IMG/VR virus record: IMGVR_UViG_3300044814_000107
Span: 67,224-92,052 of that record
DNA: 24,829 bases
Source of the DNA: a virus
Lineage: Duplodnaviria; Heunggongvirae; Uroviricota; Caudoviricetes
Strand: one strand, 5' to 3'
Made by a program: the position numbers and the translations under genes
Notes under the pieces: model-generated
Seen by the model: only the letters and a program-made list of their open reading frames with translations
Database searches by the model: none
Told to the model about the DNA's origin: nothing
Shown here: piece after piece, positions 7,095 through 15,710 of the stretch
How the letters are laid out: the number at the start of each line of letters is the position of its first letter
Numbering within the stretch: position 1 is the first letter of the stretch

Positions 7095-8084
7095 CTAGTA
7101 GCCGCCGCCGCCGAACTCGGAGAAGTCGGCCGCGGGCGCGCCTCGCCGTGTACGTGGCATGTTGCCGAGCGGATCGGCGTCCGGTACGAACCTGTCGAGA
7201 CCGCGCTGTAGGAAGTGGAGCAGCGTCCAACGGTGACTCCAGACGTACTCGTCGCTGGCGAGGACCTTCGCGTAGTTCTCGATCGCCGCAACGACCTCGT
7301 CGACGGAGTAGACCTTCAATGCACCGTTGATCGCGCCCTGCGTCTTGTCGGCCTGAAGTACCGCTTCTCGATGGGGCATCAGTGGCGGCGCGAGCCGGGT
7401 CCAGGTCGCGGCGATGAGCGACTTAGGGTGCGGACTCATGCCCTGGTCTTGAAGTTCATCTTGAATAGAAGGAGAGACCGGCAGCTTTTTCCGTTCTGGA
7501 TCGGCAGCTTTTTCCGCTTGGCGCTCCTGACCGGCAGATATTGCCGATCTAGGCGGGACGGTAAGGACGTAGACGTTTCTTAGCCCCCGACCTCGTCTCT
7601 GCGTCTTTACGAGATTCGCGGTGCGCAGTTCCGAGGTAGCCGTCCGCAGCGTCCGCTCCGAGCACTGAGCCATCGCCGCTAGTCCTTCTTGGCCCGGCCA
7701 CTCCTCGTTCGGCCGCCACGAGAGGTGGAGCAGGACGACGAACAGCCGGAAAGCGACGGGGCTGAGCTCGATGTCGAGCAGAATTGCGTTCGGGACCATC
7801 GTGAATCCGCGCTGCCAGAGACCGTCGGACCACCGGACGTTCCGATCATCGACTCGATCCCCCTTCGATGAGTTACAGGGCTGGCAGAGAAGCTGAAGAT
7901 TTTCCAGTACGTCTGGGCCGCGAGGATCGACGTGGTCGAGGGTTAGACCTGCCGTTGCGCCGCAGTGCTGACAGACCGCACCATCGCGAGCGACCAATAG
8001 GTCGAAGAGTTGCCGCTTCCGAGGATTGGTTATCTCGGTGAGCGGTAGCTCTAGGCCCACCGTGTCATCCGACACGGCTGCCAC
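7095..8084 (-). CDS. Phage replication initiator (HTH_36 / lambda O-like) with N-terminal HNH domain
   Basis: N-terminus CQHCG...LTLDHVDPRG...ENLQLLCQPCNSSKG (HNH). Middle GFTMVPNAIL...LSPVAFRLF..L...WPGQEGLA...SERTLRTATSELRTANLV..QRRG..NVY (wHTH). Followed by a DnaC-like loader. Start is GTG 8084 or 8075. Confidence 0.8.
   Translation of the reverse strand: MAAVSDDTVGLELPLTEITNPRKRQLFDLLVARDGAVCQHCGATAGLTLDHVDPRGPDVLENLQLLCQPCNSSKGDRVDDRNVRWSDGLWQRGFTMVPNAILLDIELSPVAFRLFVVLLHLSWRPNEEWPGQEGLAAMAQCSERTLRTATSELRTANLVKTQRRGRGLRNVYVLTVPPRSAISAGQERQAEKAADPERKKLPVSPSIQDELQDQGMSPHPKSLIAATWTRLAPPLMPHREAVLQADKTQGAINGALKVYSVDEVVAAIENYAKVLASDEYVWSHRWTLLHFLQRGLDRFVPDADPLGNMPRTRRGAPAADFSEFGGGGY
7447..7546. 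repeat. Putative replication origin: three 18-bp iterons plus an AT-rich segment inside the initiator gene
   Basis: GACCGGCAGCTTTTTCCG (7476), GATCGGCAGCTTTTTCCG (7499) and GACCGGCAGATATTGCCG (7529), with adjacent AT-rich TCTTGAAGTTCATCTTGAATAGAA (7447-7470). Confidence 0.6.
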
Positions 8085-8112
8085 GCTGCCTTCGTCGTCC
8101 TCACAGCGACAG

Positions 8113-8134
8113 AGAGTAGAGCGGGGGGCGGACG
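8113..8134 (-). promoter_or_regulatory. Putative promoter CGTCCG-N10-TACTCT for the initiator gene
   Basis: Motif copy. It overlaps a GC-rich imperfect hairpin (about 8121-8160) just after the upstream stop. Confidence 0.6.
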
Positions 8135-8165
8135 GACGCAAGTCCCCGTCCCCCGCCTCTGCGAA

Positions 8166-9838: not shown

Positions 9839-10834
9839 CTAGTCCTTCGTCGCGCTAGCGGGCTCGGCCGATGTCTCAGCGGGAGCTTCGGCGGCGGGCG
9901 TCTCCGCTGCCGCTGCCTTCTTCTCCTCAATCCGCGCCTTCGACTTCCCGAGCTGCTCGGCGACGTACTCGGGAGTCAGGACACCGCGCGCGAGCCGCTT
10001 CGCCTTCGCGAACGTCTCCGTGATCGACTGCTCGTTGATCCGGGGATTGCCCTCCGAGACGAGGCTCGCGACGAGCTCGGCGACGGCCTCCTCGGACGCA
10101 GCCTCGGGCGGAGCAGGCGGCGGGTTCCCCTTCGAGAGCCACTCGGTCAGGGCCTCCGAAACGGCTGCGGCCTGCTCCTCGTCTCCGAGGTTCGAGACCG
10201 TGTCCGTCAGCGGGTCGACGTGACCGCTCCACGAGACGTCGTGGGTGTCCTGCTCGAACCGGCCGACGAGGTTGAACTCGTACTGCAGGTCGTCGCTCTG
10301 GATCGGGCCGACGCCGAGCATCCGGATTACCTGCCGCTTCCGGCCGTTCTGCTCCTCCTCGCCGACCTCGTACTTCATCTTCGCGCGGCAGGTGGCGATG
10401 ACGTGCGAGTTGACGGCGCCGATCCGCTCGACGAAGGCGTTGTGCTTCGGCCGGACGATCTTCCAGTCGCCGAAGCGGTCGGCCTGCTGAAGGATTCCGC
10501 CCGCGCCAGTCCACTCGTGCGAGACCGAGTCGAGGATGATCGTCCGGCCGGGCCAGCGCTCCTCGGCCATATCGAGCGCGGCGATGAAGGCCTCGGGCGA
10601 GAAGTCGCCGAGGACGCTCATGTCGATCAGCGCGAACTCGTAGCGGTCGGCGTAGAGCTTCGCGCGCCGCTGCTCGGTGTTGATCAGGACGGTCCCGAGC
10701 TTCCCTTCGAAGATACGACTCGCGATCTCCAGTGCGGCCCTGCTCTTGCCGCTTCCGGTCGGCCCCATGAATAGAGCCCTTAGGAGGAGCTGGTCGCGCG
10801 CGGCGACGTCCTCCGTCTCGAACTCGTACGCCAT
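9839..10834 (-). CDS. AAA_24 / Sak4-like recombination ATPase
   Basis: GPTGSGKS, INTE, IILDSVSHEWTGAGG, W..VRPKHNAFV..I...HVIATCRAK, G..PIQ..DLQYEF. Strong SD AAAGGGAGG. Confidence 0.8.
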   Translation of the reverse strand: MAYEFETEDVAARDQLLLRALFMGPTGSGKSRAALEIASRIFEGKLGTVLINTEQRRAKLYADRYEFALIDMSVLGDFSPEAFIAALDMAEERWPGRTIILDSVSHEWTGAGGILQQADRFGDWKIVRPKHNAFVERIGAVNSHVIATCRAKMKYEVGEEEQNGRKRQVIRMLGVGPIQSDDLQYEFNLVGRFEQDTHDVSWSGHVDPLTDTVSNLGDEEQAAAVSEALTEWLSKGNPPPAPPEAASEEAVAELVASLVSEGNPRINEQSITETFAKAKRLARGVLTPEYVAEQLGKSKARIEEKKAAAAETPAAEAPAETSAEPASATKD

Positions 10835-11134: not shown

Positions 11135-11419
11135 TCAGTCGACGAGGCTGAGACCGGGCGGGTTCTTCTCGAGTGCTGGGCCGAAGAAGCGCTCGTTCTT
11201 CTCGCTGACGATCTGATAGGCAGCGAGGAGCTTCACCGTCAGTACGCGCAGGTCGGACTTGATCTCTTCCATCTGCGCGAGCAGGTCGGGTTCGATTTCG
11301 ACGACCGTGTCGGCCATCGAGTGAGCTGTCTTGATCGGCTCGGCTATCGCGAGCAGCCGCTCGCCTGTCCGGGCCGTCTCGACGATCCTTTGGATCGTCT
11401 CGTCCGTCGTAAGTGCCAC
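11135..11419 (-). CDS. Hypothetical protein (94 aa, helical)
   Basis: GTG with SD AAGGGAG. First gene of the leftward operon. Confidence 0.7.
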   Translation of the reverse strand: MALTTDETIQRIVETARTGERLLAIAEPIKTAHSMADTVVEIEPDLLAQMEEIKSDLRVLTVKLLAAYQIVSEKNERFFGPALEKNPPGLSLVD

Positions 11420-11447
11420 CTCGTCTCCCTTCGTCGTCAGAGGTACG

Positions 11448-11469
11448 ACCGTAGCGTAAGAGGCGGACG
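11448..11469 (-). promoter_or_regulatory. Putative promoter CGTCCG-N10-TACGGT
   Basis: Motif copy at the start of the recombination/replication operon. Confidence 0.65.
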
Positions 11470-11499
11470 GAAACTACCCGCGCGCTATATCCTCTCCCG

Positions 11500-11668
11500 C
11501 TAGACCGAGCGAGGGGCGCGCGCCGAAAGATGCCCCCGCTGAATCCGACCGCCGGCGCGAGGAAGAGAGGGAGAGGCCAGACGGACCCAACGTTCGCAGA
11601 GGGCGCGCATCCGAACTACAGCCGGTACGGACGGCTGCTGGCGCGCTGACTTCGACATTGGAGGAGCA
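11500..11668 (+). ncRNA. Structured 5' leader resembling a (variant) c-di-AMP/ydaO riboswitch
   Basis: A TATCCT -10 at 11488-11493 gives a leader of about 170 nt. Ordered blocks: CGCTGAATCC (11537), CGAGGAA (11558), GAGGG, TCCGAAC (11610), CAGC and GCTGACTTCG (11645). CGAGG can pair with CTTCG. Downstream gene class fits. Confidence 0.45.
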
Positions 11669-12355
11669 TTGCGATTTCTTCTGACCCTAACGGCCGCCGT
11701 CGCCGCGGCCGCAACTCTGGCGACAGCCCCGATCGACGGGGCATCGAAAGCGGTACCGCAGCAGCACGTTCTTCGTTCGGATGTCTCGCAGGTGAGGAAC
11801 CTGCGTCACTCGATCCCGTGGCACCGAACGATGACGTGGCATTACCAGGACGAGAGAGGCGTTCGCCGGACAGTCTCGGCGTACATGGAGCGACGTACCC
11901 GGAGCGTCCCGTACCTACGCTGGGACAACCAGCTCTGGACGCACCGGCAGATCAGGGCGAAGCACGCCCTCGCCGCGCACCGGCTCCCGCTGACGAACGA
12001 CTGGGCCACCGCGGTCCGGGTCGTGCAGCGGGACTGGCCCGGCACCGCCGACTGGCTTCTCTCGTGCTCCGGAGGCGAGGGCGGCCACGGCATCTGGGTA
12101 TGGAACGGCGGCGCTCCGTACGACTCGCCAAACCACGGCTCGGGTGTGGGCGGCTGGATGCAGTACGCGCCGGGTACGTGGTCGGGGCAGTTCAGCTCCG
12201 CTCTACGCGAGGCCGTGCAACGACACCTAGCGTTGCCGCTACAGAAGACGTCGTCATGGCTGAGTCCCATCGGTCAGGCGTTCGCGGCCGGCTGGTCTCG
12301 CTTCCACCATGCGACATCGGCGTGGGATCCGGGGATCGACCCAGCCTGCGCTTGA
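11669..12355 (+). CDS. Secreted lytic transglycosylase (SLT/Rpf-like) protein
   Basis: TTG start with SD GGAGG. Signal peptide MRFLLTLTAAVAAAATLA. C-terminal CSGGEGG...N...SGVGGWMQYAPGTW...SPIGQAFAAGW...W fits the lysozyme-fold E...G.xQ.xxTW pattern. Confidence 0.7.
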   Translation: MRFLLTLTAAVAAAATLATAPIDGASKAVPQQHVLRSDVSQVRNLRHSIPWHRTMTWHYQDERGVRRTVSAYMERRTRSVPYLRWDNQLWTHRQIRAKHALAAHRLPLTNDWATAVRVVQRDWPGTADWLLSCSGGEGGHGIWVWNGGAPYDSPNHGSGVGGWMQYAPGTWSGQFSSALREAVQRHLALPLQKTSSWLSPIGQAFAAGWSRFHHATSAWDPGIDPACA

Positions 12356-12770
12356 AGAAACGGAGGGGTGCCTTCGGGCGCCCCTCTAACGCTTCTTGCG
12401 CCTCGAGCGCCTCGAGCGCTTTAGCGATCGCGCGGCCGGGCCATAGCATCTTCAACCCGTCCGAGCGGGGCCACGGGAGCAGGTTCCAGAAGAGGATCTC
12501 CAAGCCGACCGCCACGACGAGTCCCTGCCCGAGAAGGTAGGCGACGGCGCAGAGGGCGATGTTGGCGAGGGGGCCACCGGCGGAGGTCAGGACGAGTTGC
12601 CGCCGGGTCAGGAGAAGATCGTCGCGGCCGATGACGACGGCGGGGCCATGCCAAGTGAGGATCGGCCGCCAGTGCAGCCGGAGGGCGACGGCGGCGAGGA
12701 CGTGGCCGATCTCGTGGACGACGAGCGTGACGGCCACGATGAGGGCGAGGATGAGGTCGAGGTCGAGCAT
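12192..12770 (-). CDS. Minimal site-2 protease (peptidase M50) family membrane metalloprotease
   Basis: TM1 with HEIGH (HExxH), AGGPLAN and NLLPWPRSDG (NPDG-type motif). The in-frame stop is unusually far downstream. Confidence 0.75.
   Translation of the reverse strand: MLDLDLILALIVAVTLVVHEIGHVLAAVALRLHWRPILTWHGPAVVIGRDDLLLTRRQLVLTSAGGPLANIALCAVAYLLGQGLVVAVGLEILFWNLLPWPRSDGLKMLWPGRAIAKALEALEAQEALEGRPKAPLRFFKRRLGRSPDPTPMSHGGSETSRPRTPDRWDSAMTTSSVAATLGVVARPRVERS
12363..12386. terminator. Hairpin between convergent genes (probable bidirectional terminator)
   Basis: GAGGGGTGCC-TTCG-GGCGCCCCTC, a 10-bp stem with a UUCG loop. It is followed by CGTTTCTT on the minus strand. Confidence 0.7.
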
Positions 12771-12816
12771 CGTGACCCGACGATCTTCTGCCGCGACTCG
12801 GACGACGGGCTGCATA

Positions 12817-12839
12817 CGTCCGACCCTCGCCTCTATTCT
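12817..12839 (+). promoter_or_regulatory. Putative promoter CGTCCG-N11-TATTCT
   Basis: Motif copy with a spacer 1 nt longer. GTG follows 7 nt later at 12847. Confidence 0.45.
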
Positions 12840-12846
12840 GTGGTGC

Positions 12847-13344
12847 GTGGCGCGTAACACCACCGTCGCCCTGATTCGACTCTGCGACATCTGCGGCGGA
12901 CCAGCCGACGGTCACGTTCATCGAGACGGCTGTCTCGTTACGTCGGCGCCGTTCACGGAGACGCTTCGAGCCTTCGTCGTTCGCTGGAGCAAAGATCGTC
13001 CGCAGCCGGGCGCCCAGTTCGGGGTGACTACCGAGGAGCCGCCGATCAGGGCGCTCGCTTGGCTCGCGGCGGAGGTTTCGCGGCACTCCCCCTACATCAC
13101 GGAAGCGACACTGAAGGGTCTGCTCGAGCGTGGCGACCGCGCGAAGGGGCTGATCGAACTCAGGGTCGCCGACGCGCTCGCGGTCGCGCTCGACCGGCCA
13201 GACGTCTTCTACGATCCGCGCATCGTCGTCTACCGGAACCCGCAGGCGTCGCGCGACGCGGAGTGTCTCGACGAGCTCGGCCAGCCGCTCCGTGTGCCGC
13301 CGGGGGCGTGCTGCTCCGGCAGTTCGCGCCTGCTCGCCGCCTAG
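12847..13344 (+). CDS. Hypothetical protein (165 aa), leaderless
   Basis: 3' part of ORF 12559..13344. CDICGG..GH.H...C near the N-terminus; possible HTH-like segment TLKGLLERG...RVADALAVAL. Confidence 0.6.
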   Translation: MARNTTVALIRLCDICGGPADGHVHRDGCLVTSAPFTETLRAFVVRWSKDRPQPGAQFGVTTEEPPIRALAWLAAEVSRHSPYITEATLKGLLERGDRAKGLIELRVADALAVALDRPDVFYDPRIVVYRNPQASRDAECLDELGQPLRVPPGACCSGSSRLLAA

Positions 13345-13355
13345 ACGGACTCCGA

Positions 13356-13428
13356 TGCCTGCGGCGAGACTCGAACTCGCACTGACCGGCTTTTGACCCC
13401 GGGGCCTCTACCGTTGGGCTACGCAGGC
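13356..13428 (-). tRNA. tRNA-Leu(CAA), short variable loop, no encoded CCA
   Basis: Acceptor GCCTGCG/CGCAGGC-A, D arm TAGCCCAACGGTAGAGGC, anticodon arm CCGGG-GTCAAAA-GCCGG (G31:G39 mismatch), T arm GCGAG-TTCGAGT-CTCGC. Confidence 0.75.
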
Positions 13429-13430
13429 GA

Positions 13431-13499
13431 TGCCCGACCCCGGACTCGAACCGGGAACCTCTCCGGCCTGAACGGAGCGCCTCTACCAGATTGGGCTAC
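13431..13499 (-). pseudogene. tRNA-Leu(CAG) lacking its 5' acceptor strand
   Basis: D arm, CTCCG-TTCAGGC-CGGAG anticodon arm, CCCGG-TTCGAGT-CCGGG T arm and 3' GTCGGGC-A are intact. The 5' 7 nt read ATTCCAG and cannot pair. Confidence 0.7.
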
Positions 13500-14990: not shown

Positions 14991-15710
14991 CTAGACGATC
15001 TTGGTGAAGCGAACGAATGCGGGCAGGTATGCGTTAGTTCCGCCAGCGCCAGCATTGAACACCGGCGTCCCCGTAGTGGCCGTGACGTAGCAACGGATCG
15101 TGTACGTGTGTGAGCCAGCCGACGGCGTGAACCTGTAGGCCGCGTACATCGGCACCGCGTTGCGAATGGCTGTTGAGAGAGATCGAATCTGTGCCAGCCG
15201 TCCCAGTTCCGTCGACCCCTCGAAGAGGGAACAGTTGAAGAGATCACCGACTGCCCCGGTGTCGCAGAGAATGGCAGGCGAGAACACTTCTACTAGGACA
15301 AGGCCGCCGTCAAAGGTGATCGCGCCGGGCGAGATCACAGTTGTCGCTCCGCCCGAGGTTGTCCCTGTGATGTTCACGCCGGACGTTATCTCGGCGTACG
15401 CGATCTCTGTGCTTCCCGCCCCGCCACCCCCTGGGATCGAAACGTGCGCGACGCCGCCGCCCGAGTCGGTGACTGTCGCTCCGGTGAAGTCGATCTCCGT
15501 CGTCGGGCTGACGGTCGTGGAGCCGTCCGTGACTGCCAGCGAGGAACCGCCCACGTAGCCGAGCGAGTTCCAGTCCGTGGAGCCGTCCCCGATCTTCACC
15601 TTGCCGGTGTCGGTCTCGTAGCCGGGCTCGCCCGCTTCGAGGGTCGGGTTGACGCTCGTCCAGGTGGCGGCTGTGTCGCGGCGGAACTCGATCAGGACGT
15701 TGCGGCCCAT
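14991..15710 (-). CDS. Tail fibre / minor tail protein with Mtd_N-like N-terminal domain
   Basis: IEFRRDTAATWTSVNPTLEAGEPGYETDTGKVKIGDGSTDWNSLGY, followed by a beta-rich C-terminal domain. Confidence 0.8.
   Translation of the reverse strand: MGRNVLIEFRRDTAATWTSVNPTLEAGEPGYETDTGKVKIGDGSTDWNSLGYVGGSSLAVTDGSTTVSPTTEIDFTGATVTDSGGGVAHVSIPGGGGAGSTEIAYAEITSGVNITGTTSGGATTVISPGAITFDGGLVLVEVFSPAILCDTGAVGDLFNCSLFEGSTELGRLAQIRSLSTAIRNAVPMYAAYRFTPSAGSHTYTIRCYVTATTGTPVFNAGAGGTNAYLPAFVRFTKIV

Follow-up and report, generated by a model that had tools for sequence, protein, structure and literature searches.

The predicted muralytic gene and its product

The window analysed here, by which the whole stretch of 24,829 nucleotides (nt) is meant, represents the last 24.8 kb of the 92,052-bp IMG/VR virus record IMGVR_UViG_3300044814_000107, a record with direct terminal repeats. 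An open reading frame (ORF) of 228 amino acids (aa) on the + strand of this window (11669-12355) codes for a protein of predicted muralytic type and is preceded by a long leader (approximately 11500-11668), the element with which this analysis is concerned. The flanking ORFs are located on the - strand, in agreement with the opposed orientation noted in the original prediction for this locus. A GC-rich 10-bp hairpin with a UUCG loop (12363-12386), a candidate terminator, occurs 3' of the stop codon, between the convergent genes. Given its orientation opposite to that of its neighbours and the hairpin after its stop codon, the ORF looks like an independent transcription unit. A simple promoter and terminator scan of the window detected neither element for the muralytic gene; the hairpin lacks a T-run and is therefore absent from the scan output. 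A putative -10 element of the gene's promoter (TATATC / TATCCT; 11484-11493, + strand) can be read from the sequence. The hexamer TATCCT, which the original prediction had taken as the -10, does occur at 11488-11493, but no promoter match was found at this site in a sigma-70 consensus scan. TANNNT-like hexamers are found 30-90 nt 5' of the core motif in the related leaders described below.

The start codon is a TTG at 11669, six bases past GGAGGAG, and the N-terminus of the 228-aa ORF, MRFLLTLTAAVAAAATLATAPIDGA, reads as a signal peptide, whereas the gene is listed in the public protein collection as a 174-aa product beginning at Met55. Thirty-six homologues were identified, all of them hypothetical proteins of uncultured origin from soil or rhizosphere assemblies, four of which align over the full length of the protein, including its hydrophobic N-terminus/signal peptide (residues 1-25). 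The long gene model is preferred because of these four full-length alignments and because the block from the Shine-Dalgarno (SD) sequence to the start codon is kept in all related loci. Judging by these comparisons, the TTG at 11669 with its signal peptide is the better gene model and replaces the 174-aa form on record.

Following the signal peptide, the protein is predicted to consist of a helical hairpin (residues ~31-104) and a lytic-transglycosylase/Rpf-like domain (residues ~104-228). Residues D111, W112, S134, E137, G138, Q165, T170 and C227 are invariant in an alignment of 30 sequences, in which G161, G162, W163 and M164 are conserved in at least 90%, and Cys133 is near-invariant alongside the invariant Cys227 in the family alignment. 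The AlphaFold2 model derived from 30 sequences has a mean pLDDT of 85.3. The structural matches of the hairpin (residues 31-104) are generic coiled coils only. The best fold match of residues 104-228 is gp144 of phage phiKZ (Z 8.1, root-mean-square deviation 2.6, 95 aligned residues), followed by MltE (Z 7.5), MltC (7.2), Slt70 (7.0) and Pseudomonas aeruginosa Slt (6.9), and by RpfB with Z-scores of 6.2 and 6.1 at 20-22% identity. Foldseek returns the same lytic-transglycosylase families with E-values that are not significant (best 0.66), and since these are not significant on their own, the fold support for a lytic-transglycosylase is graded as moderate. The SGAGGWMQF..GT block of the family profile aligns with SSATGWFQF..GT of gp144 (residues 127-152) at an E-value of 0.5, which is weak by itself. 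E137 lies some 25 residues before the G-G-W-M-Q-(F/Y)...T block, a spacing from which, without superposition, it would be the counterpart of the catalytic Glu of gp144.

Searches of the protein against Pfam (E<=1), PHROGs and PDB sequences returned nothing significant, and with no Pfam match at this E-value it does not reach the cut-off of the Rpf (PF06737) or SLT profiles. Among isolated phages, neither blastn nor tblastn revealed anything related to the locus or the protein. The protein shares the lysozyme-like C-terminal fold of phiKZ gp144, MltE, Slt70 and Rpf (PF06737) and is itself predicted to be secreted, while, unlike Rpf and the family-1 lytic transglycosylases, it has an extra N-terminal helical hairpin, a Cys133/Cys227 pair and no Pfam match. 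The assignment as a secreted lytic-transglycosylase/Rpf-like enzyme is a well-supported prediction, and the signal-peptide-bearing transglycosylase with a lysozyme-like fold that had been predicted for this gene is thereby borne out at the level of the model.

A conserved leader of Rpf-type genes

The loci of the homologues were taken from viral, genome and metagenome collections, and a single short block shared by their leaders was picked out by blastn of the leader. The full set comprises 19 leaders, 17 of which are non-redundant, on soil viral and metagenome contigs, and the leader family belongs to uncultured actinobacteria-type soil phages. The leaders have a common plan, in which a GC-rich hairpin, often with an AAUC word after it, precedes an SD-like purine tract, (C)GA-(A)AGGAGG(U) (hereafter SD1). 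At 3-8 nt after this tract stands the near-invariant core motif CCAGA(C/A)GGACCCAG, and a further GC-rich hairpin, variable in sequence and length, is followed by CGAC-YUGG-AGG and, 4-6 nt later, by the start codon. All 19 leaders retain the motif together with the two SD blocks, although the proteins encoded downstream are 30-65% identical or unalignable and the remainder of the leader cannot be aligned.

All of these parts are found on the + strand of the window. The minimum-free-energy fold places a GC-rich hairpin, P0 (AGCGAGGGGC ... GCCCCCGCU), at 11508-11540; it is not alignable between leaders, and a GC-rich hairpin of some kind stands just 5' of the purine tract in most of its relatives. 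The semi-conserved AAUCC word follows at 11542-11546. AAUC occurs within 50 nt 5' of the motif in seven of the 17 leaders, where shuffled sequences would give 2.06 (p ~0.0005). SD1, which in the window has the degenerate form GAGGGAGAGG (11558-11576), is kept in all 19 leaders, in most of them with no start codon after it. Its mean contiguous complementarity to the 3' tail of the 16S rRNA in 18 leaders (7.6 nt) is longer than that of the true SD (5.8 nt). The core motif CCAGACGGACCCAA (11577-11590) is near-invariant in the 19 leaders and occurs as a single copy in the 92-kb phage genome. The true SD, GGAGG (SD2; 11660-11664), belongs to the block CGAC-YUGG-AGG-N4-6-NUG that is kept in 19/19 leaders, and CGAC occurs within the last 30 nt in 12 of the 17, where 1.9 would be expected. 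Of the 18 leaders tabulated for their start context, 17 have NUGA (UUGA, GUGA or AUGA), which makes residue 2 Lys or Arg, while the window departs from this with UUG CGA. L082 has an additional, degenerate motif copy (UCCAGACGCCGACCCC; 2719-2735) approximately 30 nt 5' of the canonical one.

RNAalifold of 14 leaders pairs the last four bases of the motif with the YUGG that precedes AGG. The core motif can be divided into positions 1-8, which form a mini-hairpin (CC-AGAC-GG, 11577-11584; CC-AGAM-GG in the family), a linker AC, and positions 11-14, the 5' strand of a helix termed P1a (11587-90 with 11658-61). The covarying helix P1a forms the base of an irregular hairpin (11587-11661), and its last two pairs involve the first two G of SD2. 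In the 19 leaders, 97.4% of the P1a cells are paired, with AU 15 / GC 2 / UA 1 at pair 3 and GC 7 / GU 6 / AU 5 at pair 4, so that this SD-containing helix has changed on both sides at two of its four pairs. Its covariation score was reached by one of 500 shuffles, and sliding the partner by 1-3 columns reduced pairing to 5-51%. Pair 1-8 of the mini-hairpin is C-G in 16 leaders and G-C in three, representing two lineages (L059/L033 and L081), and is never broken, while pair 2-7 is invariant. Compensatory changes occur in at least two lineages each for P1a and the mini-hairpin, and the observed values for both together were reached by none of 500 shuffles.

In constrained folds P1a extends inward in every leader, typically by GCCG with CGAC, including a C·A mismatch, and in the window by GU(U)CG with CGAC (P1b, one U bulged; 11592-96 with 11653-56). 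P1b and the GC-rich P2 (11602-08 with 11641-47) are predicted from constrained folds and from compensating differences between subgroups (CGCGCCG/CGGCGCG in L010 vs CGUGCUC/GAGCACG in L067), and the apical part of the hairpin, which includes P3 in the window (CAGCCG-N7-CGGCTG; 11619-24 with 11632-37), varies between leaders. No enriched complement to positions 5-10 of the motif was found anywhere in the leader, the downstream complements being if anything depleted, and for this reason the most conserved bases of the motif are probably unpaired or engaged in non-Watson-Crick contacts. Pairing of AAUCCG with the CGGA of the motif, or of any partner with motif positions 1-10, was tried and rejected as not enriched.

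The leader is not restricted to the gene family of the window. Exact-motif scans of IMG/VR gave approximately 260 matches, most of them by chance inside ORFs, and about ten contigs with the full architecture. Among the genes carrying the leader, that of L229 encodes a 99-aa CESGGN...WQF...TW protein that matches PF06737 at 33.7 bits (cut-off 27), that of L148 matches at 27.9 bits against the same cut-off, and those of L108, L131 and L267 encode proteins of 111-112 aa with PF06737 scores of 17-21 bits. Searches with hidden Markov models, BLAST and hhalign revealed no link between these Rpf-domain proteins and the family of the window. Against isolated phages, an Rpf gene that shares the leader matches Staphylococcus transglycosylases only. 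Since the leader is found before both the window's family and these unlinked PF06737 genes, it is, as far as the comparison of loci goes, tied to function (secreted Rpf/lytic-transglycosylase-like enzymes) and not to one gene lineage. In the minimal leader of the L108 group, a 24-nt hairpin built of CCAGGCCG, a loop of 8 nt and CGACUUGG follows the motif, and AGG and the start codon come after it. This hairpin retains exactly the base helix and its overlap with the SD.

A covariance model of the leader family (R1) recovers its own members at 58-77 bits and gave no match at E<=1 to the other leader types of the homologous genes. In 121 bacterial genomes R1 produced four weak matches, each located within an ORF and none followed by a muralytic gene, and counts of the core motif in four bacterial genomes equalled those of the reversed-pattern control, no complementary host RNA being evident. 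Four further contigs (L231, L241, L245 and L252) were rejected as members, as coding or chance matches. In the unrelated viral contigs L245 and L252 the 12-mer CCAGACGGACCC occurs right after the ATG of an ORF (MPDGP...), probably by chance.

Proposed translational control and alternative readings of the leader

With moderate confidence, the leader is best explained as an RNA-level translational control leader of a secreted Rpf/lytic-transglycosylase-like enzyme, a reading that draws on comparative sequence evidence. When the base of the hairpin is closed, the SD would be partly occluded and initiation would be low. The exposed 5' module, formed by the SD-like tract and the motif, would serve for docking, and formation of the base helix would depend on whether this module is occupied. 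Small ligands and RNA-binding proteins are candidate partners, as is the 30S subunit, which would dock in the manner of a standby or STAB-SD site. Held on SD1, a 30S subunit would lie over the motif and the 5' P1 strand, which would leave the true SD free, and it would shield the 5' end of the mRNA. A protein or small ligand is possible as the partner because docking of 30S leaves the near-invariance of the ten bases after SD1 unexplained.

An SD-complementary tract in the 5' untranslated region with no usable start codon is a feature shared with STAB-SD, the SD-like 5' stabiliser of Bacillus thuringiensis cryIIIA (Agaisse & Lereclus 1996, pmid 8736542; reference 106 in PMC3997798). The STAB-SD tract is a strong, GAAAGGAGG-like SD far 5' of the start codon, with no start codon after it, that is thought to bind 30S. 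The window leader differs in combining its SD-like tract with an invariant 14-nt motif and a hairpin predicted to occlude the real SD, and in its likely hosts, Actinomycetota as opposed to Firmicutes. Ribosome standby sites, as described before sequestered ribosome-binding sites in the tisB +42 mRNA (PMC7708055) and in a synthetic study (PMC3936740), likewise combine an accessible upstream element with an adjoining structured, sequestered ribosome-binding site, and in both cases the element includes structure on its 5' side. The standby site of tisB is not SD-like and is located approximately 100 nt upstream (PMC7708055), whereas in the window's leader family an SD-like tract stands 13-18 nt before the base of the hairpin and the intervening sequence is invariant.

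Several observations weigh against translational control. The folding energies of the leaders are no better than those of shuffled sequences (z -2.0 to +1.1; +0.5 for the window), and in unconstrained ensembles P1a has probabilities between 0.00 and 0.98, with low values in several leaders and 0.02 in the window. At 4 bp and 2 bp, the covarying helices are short, and the shuffle statistics overstate significance, since the family numbers only 17 non-redundant leaders, some of which share descent. In the window SD1 is degenerate, its longest run of complementarity to the 16S rRNA being 4 nt. Sequencing runs for the locus comprised one of DNA, probably from the source sample, and none of RNA, and the docking factors named above are hypothetical candidates. 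Finally, the strongly conserved primary sequence of the 10-nt unpaired core would be compatible with a DNA operator as well.

A related but unlikely reading is that the conserved module represents the aptamer of a new small riboswitch, with a ligand such as a cell-wall or growth-state signal, and that the SD-occluding hairpin is its expression platform. In its favour, a highly conserved primary sequence adjoins the covarying helix whose pairs include part of the SD, the sharing of a leader by functionally related, mutually unalignable genes is typical of riboswitches, and no conserved regulator gene is found in the neighbourhood. The conserved part is nevertheless only about 30 nt long, with no pseudoknot or second helix and no enriched complement to positions 5-10, the SD-like tract points to the ribosome rather than to ligand binding, and the gene context gives no clue to a ligand beyond the muralytic enzyme. 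It is similarly unlikely that the SD-like tract and CCAGAMGGACCCAG together act as the sensing part of a new switch of very small size, either a riboswitch or one dependent on the ribosome, that is specific to phage Rpf-type enzymes and by which a phage or prophage would time the secretion of a wall-remodelling or resuscitation factor to a physiological signal of the host.

Rather improbable is the proposal that the motif is a DNA operator or promoter element for a DNA-binding protein of host or phage, the RNA helices being incidental. A near-invariant, asymmetric sequence of 12-14 bp that has a fixed orientation and distance class and is unique in the genome would suit such a site, as would the repetition of CCAG with a 10-bp period within the motif. 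However, the second CCAG varies (CCGA, CCUA) while the first stays, so that the direct repeat is not maintained, and DNA recognition does not predict the compensatory changes of the C1-G8 pair and of P1a, whose partner strand lies 30-90 nt away. The minimal leaders, with 28 nt from motif to start codon, leave no room for a downstream promoter, and a conserved regulator gene was looked for near the leader-bearing loci and none was found.

That the region is coding, either as an upstream ORF for a leader peptide or as an N-terminal extension starting after SD1, for example with a twin-arginine-like xRRTQ, is highly unlikely. In the window and in L229, the frame encoding A/V-R-R-T at the motif stays open and shares the phase of the main ORF, the C/A variation of the motif is synonymous in this frame (CGG/AGG), and in the minimal leaders an ATG after SD1 opens a 14-codon ORF that ends 3 nt before the start codon. 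In most leaders, however, no ATG, GTG or TTG follows SD1, and in most loci that frame either meets a stop 5-22 codons on or does not match the phase of the main ORF. As all three frames differ between loci in where they end and in their phase with the main ORF, the leader region is taken to be non-coding; the homologues, moreover, align from the start just past SD2, signal peptide residues 1-25 included.

The original prediction had interpreted the leader as a divergent c-di-AMP riboswitch of the ydaO/kimA type (RF00379), through which the phage would sense the c-di-AMP of its host. The words on which this was based do occur in the window in the order of the ydaO blocks, with CGCTGAATCC at 11537-11546, CGAGGAA from 11558, TCCGAAC at 11610-11616 and GCTGACTTCG at 11644-11653, as does the additional CAGCCG-N7-CGGCTG hairpin (11619-11637). 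The recurring AAUC and GGACCC-containing block resemble GAAUC and GGGGACCC of the RF00379 consensus, and actinobacterial ydaO elements are indeed found upstream of rpf and other cell-wall genes (PMC9960051). In an actinobacterial setting, ydaO/kimA elements and the window leader alike form long 5' leaders before genes of rpf type or for cell-wall hydrolases, and one ydaO member, that of Corynebacterium glutamicum nlpC, is reported to act on translation and not through a terminator (PMC9960051).

The likeness to ydaO does not extend beyond such short words. At gathering score, which for RF00379 is 38 bits, Rfam identifies two tRNAs only in the window, and a search at E<=10 with permissive filters of the 381 bases around the leader (11380-11760) returned four chance rows and no RF00379. 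Nor was RF00379 found at E<=10 in the whole 92-kb phage or in leader L108, at gathering score in 20 homologous loci, or in two bacterial metagenome-assembled genomes (MAGs) that carry homologues. The same model does work on the sampled genomes, finding 22 elements at 36-93 bits in six of 26 genomes of the class to which one of these MAGs (G001, carrying L023) belongs; the score range given for true actinobacterial ydaO elements is 45-93 bits. The consensus blocks in these control alignments are GCcgAAUc, CGgGGGAaCC, GGGGUGAAUc, UAGGGc and CCCGAACCCGuCAGCUAACCuCG, and AAUC and the GGACCC-containing block are the only ydaO-like words that recur among the 17 leaders. The pseudo-two-fold repeat of ydaO, with its second GGUGAAUC block and UAGGG, is not in evidence (GUGAAU in 0/17 leaders; UAGGG in 1/17 vs 1.3 expected), and in place of the 3' strand CCCGAACCCG-CAGCUAACCUCG (CCGAAC in 2/17, CUAAC in 0/17) the conserved sequence is CGAC-YUGG-AGG. 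Aside from the single UAGGG word, the GGUGAAU, UAGGG and CAGCUAACCUCG blocks, which in ydaO form the second ligand pocket and closing helices, are lacking in the 17 leaders.

Conversely, R1 gave no match at E<=1 to ten true ydaO loci. The proposed CGAGG/CTTCG pairing finds no support in the related leaders, its positions falling within the SD-like tract and P1b/P2, and although two helices do covary among homologous leaders, they do not correspond to those of ydaO. The window leader therefore differs from ydaO in its helices, in the lack of the GGUGAAU/UAGGG/CAGCUAACCUCG half and of a covariance-model match, in a core formed by the SD-like tract and CCAGAMGGACCCAG, and in being seen on phage and metagenome contigs only. 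On these comparisons the leader is not a c-di-AMP (ydaO) riboswitch, even a divergent one being scarcely credible, and the idea that the phage senses host c-di-AMP loses its basis with it. What stands of the earlier reading is a long cis element that is conserved and tied to Rpf-type genes. Other ideas, namely guanidine-II/III riboswitches, T-boxes, CsrA sites, boxB-like hairpins and translational bypassing, were dropped as without any support.

Very low doses of Rpf-type muralytic proteins suffice for activity, and in Actinobacteria these proteins are under tight control, in part through the ydaO riboswitch. The leader family described here suggests that phages with Rpf-type genes use a different, dedicated leader, which has moved between gene families that are not linked by BLAST or hhalign. 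The motif appears to be new, as does its link to Rpf-type genes of phages, with no match to an Rfam family and a gene found in no isolated phage, and a literature search on Rpf, bacteriophage and riboswitch yielded nothing on such a leader. SD occlusion with an upstream SD-like tract is already known as a general mechanism. If translational control is confirmed, the leader would represent a new class of cis-regulatory RNA in which an SD-like decoy or standby tract is coupled to SD occlusion, and it would provide a handle on the timing with which phage wall-remodelling enzymes are released in soil communities.

Neighbouring genes and other leader types

One flank of the muralytic gene carries replication and recombination genes on the - strand, namely an AAA_24 gene (9839-10834) and an HNH-HTH initiator gene (7095-8141). 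On the opposite flank, two adjoining tRNA matches are located on the - strand at 13356-13498, one of them complete (48.9 bits) and the other spanning model positions 8-63 only (31.1 bits), and a gene of the Mtd_N tail-fibre type (14991-15710, - strand) lies beyond them. The 3' end of the muralytic gene is overlapped by a 232-aa ORF on the - strand (12192-12890) with a sub-threshold match to Peptidase_M50 (20.1 bits), and an alternative ORF nearby (12421-13086) is without a Pfam match. In the relatives L081 and L082 the corresponding neighbour codes for a 263-aa PG_binding_1 protein, probably an endolysin.

The gene family of the window protein seems to have acquired several different long leaders. 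Seven homologues (L003:2824-2949, L005:2821-2946, L007, L038, L040, L042 and L058) have a different leader of approximately 125 nt that starts with ACACAGACG and has no Rfam match. A long-range helix, GACG...GCCGGGG / CCCCGGC...CGUC, is predicted just 5' of the SD in this type, seven of 24 predicted pairs show compensatory change, and the leader represents a second candidate structured leader of the protein family. Another, GC-rich leader form precedes the homologues in L013 and L019, while L028, L036 and L060 carry a further type with the closing helices AACCAGGCCG...CGGCCUUG.

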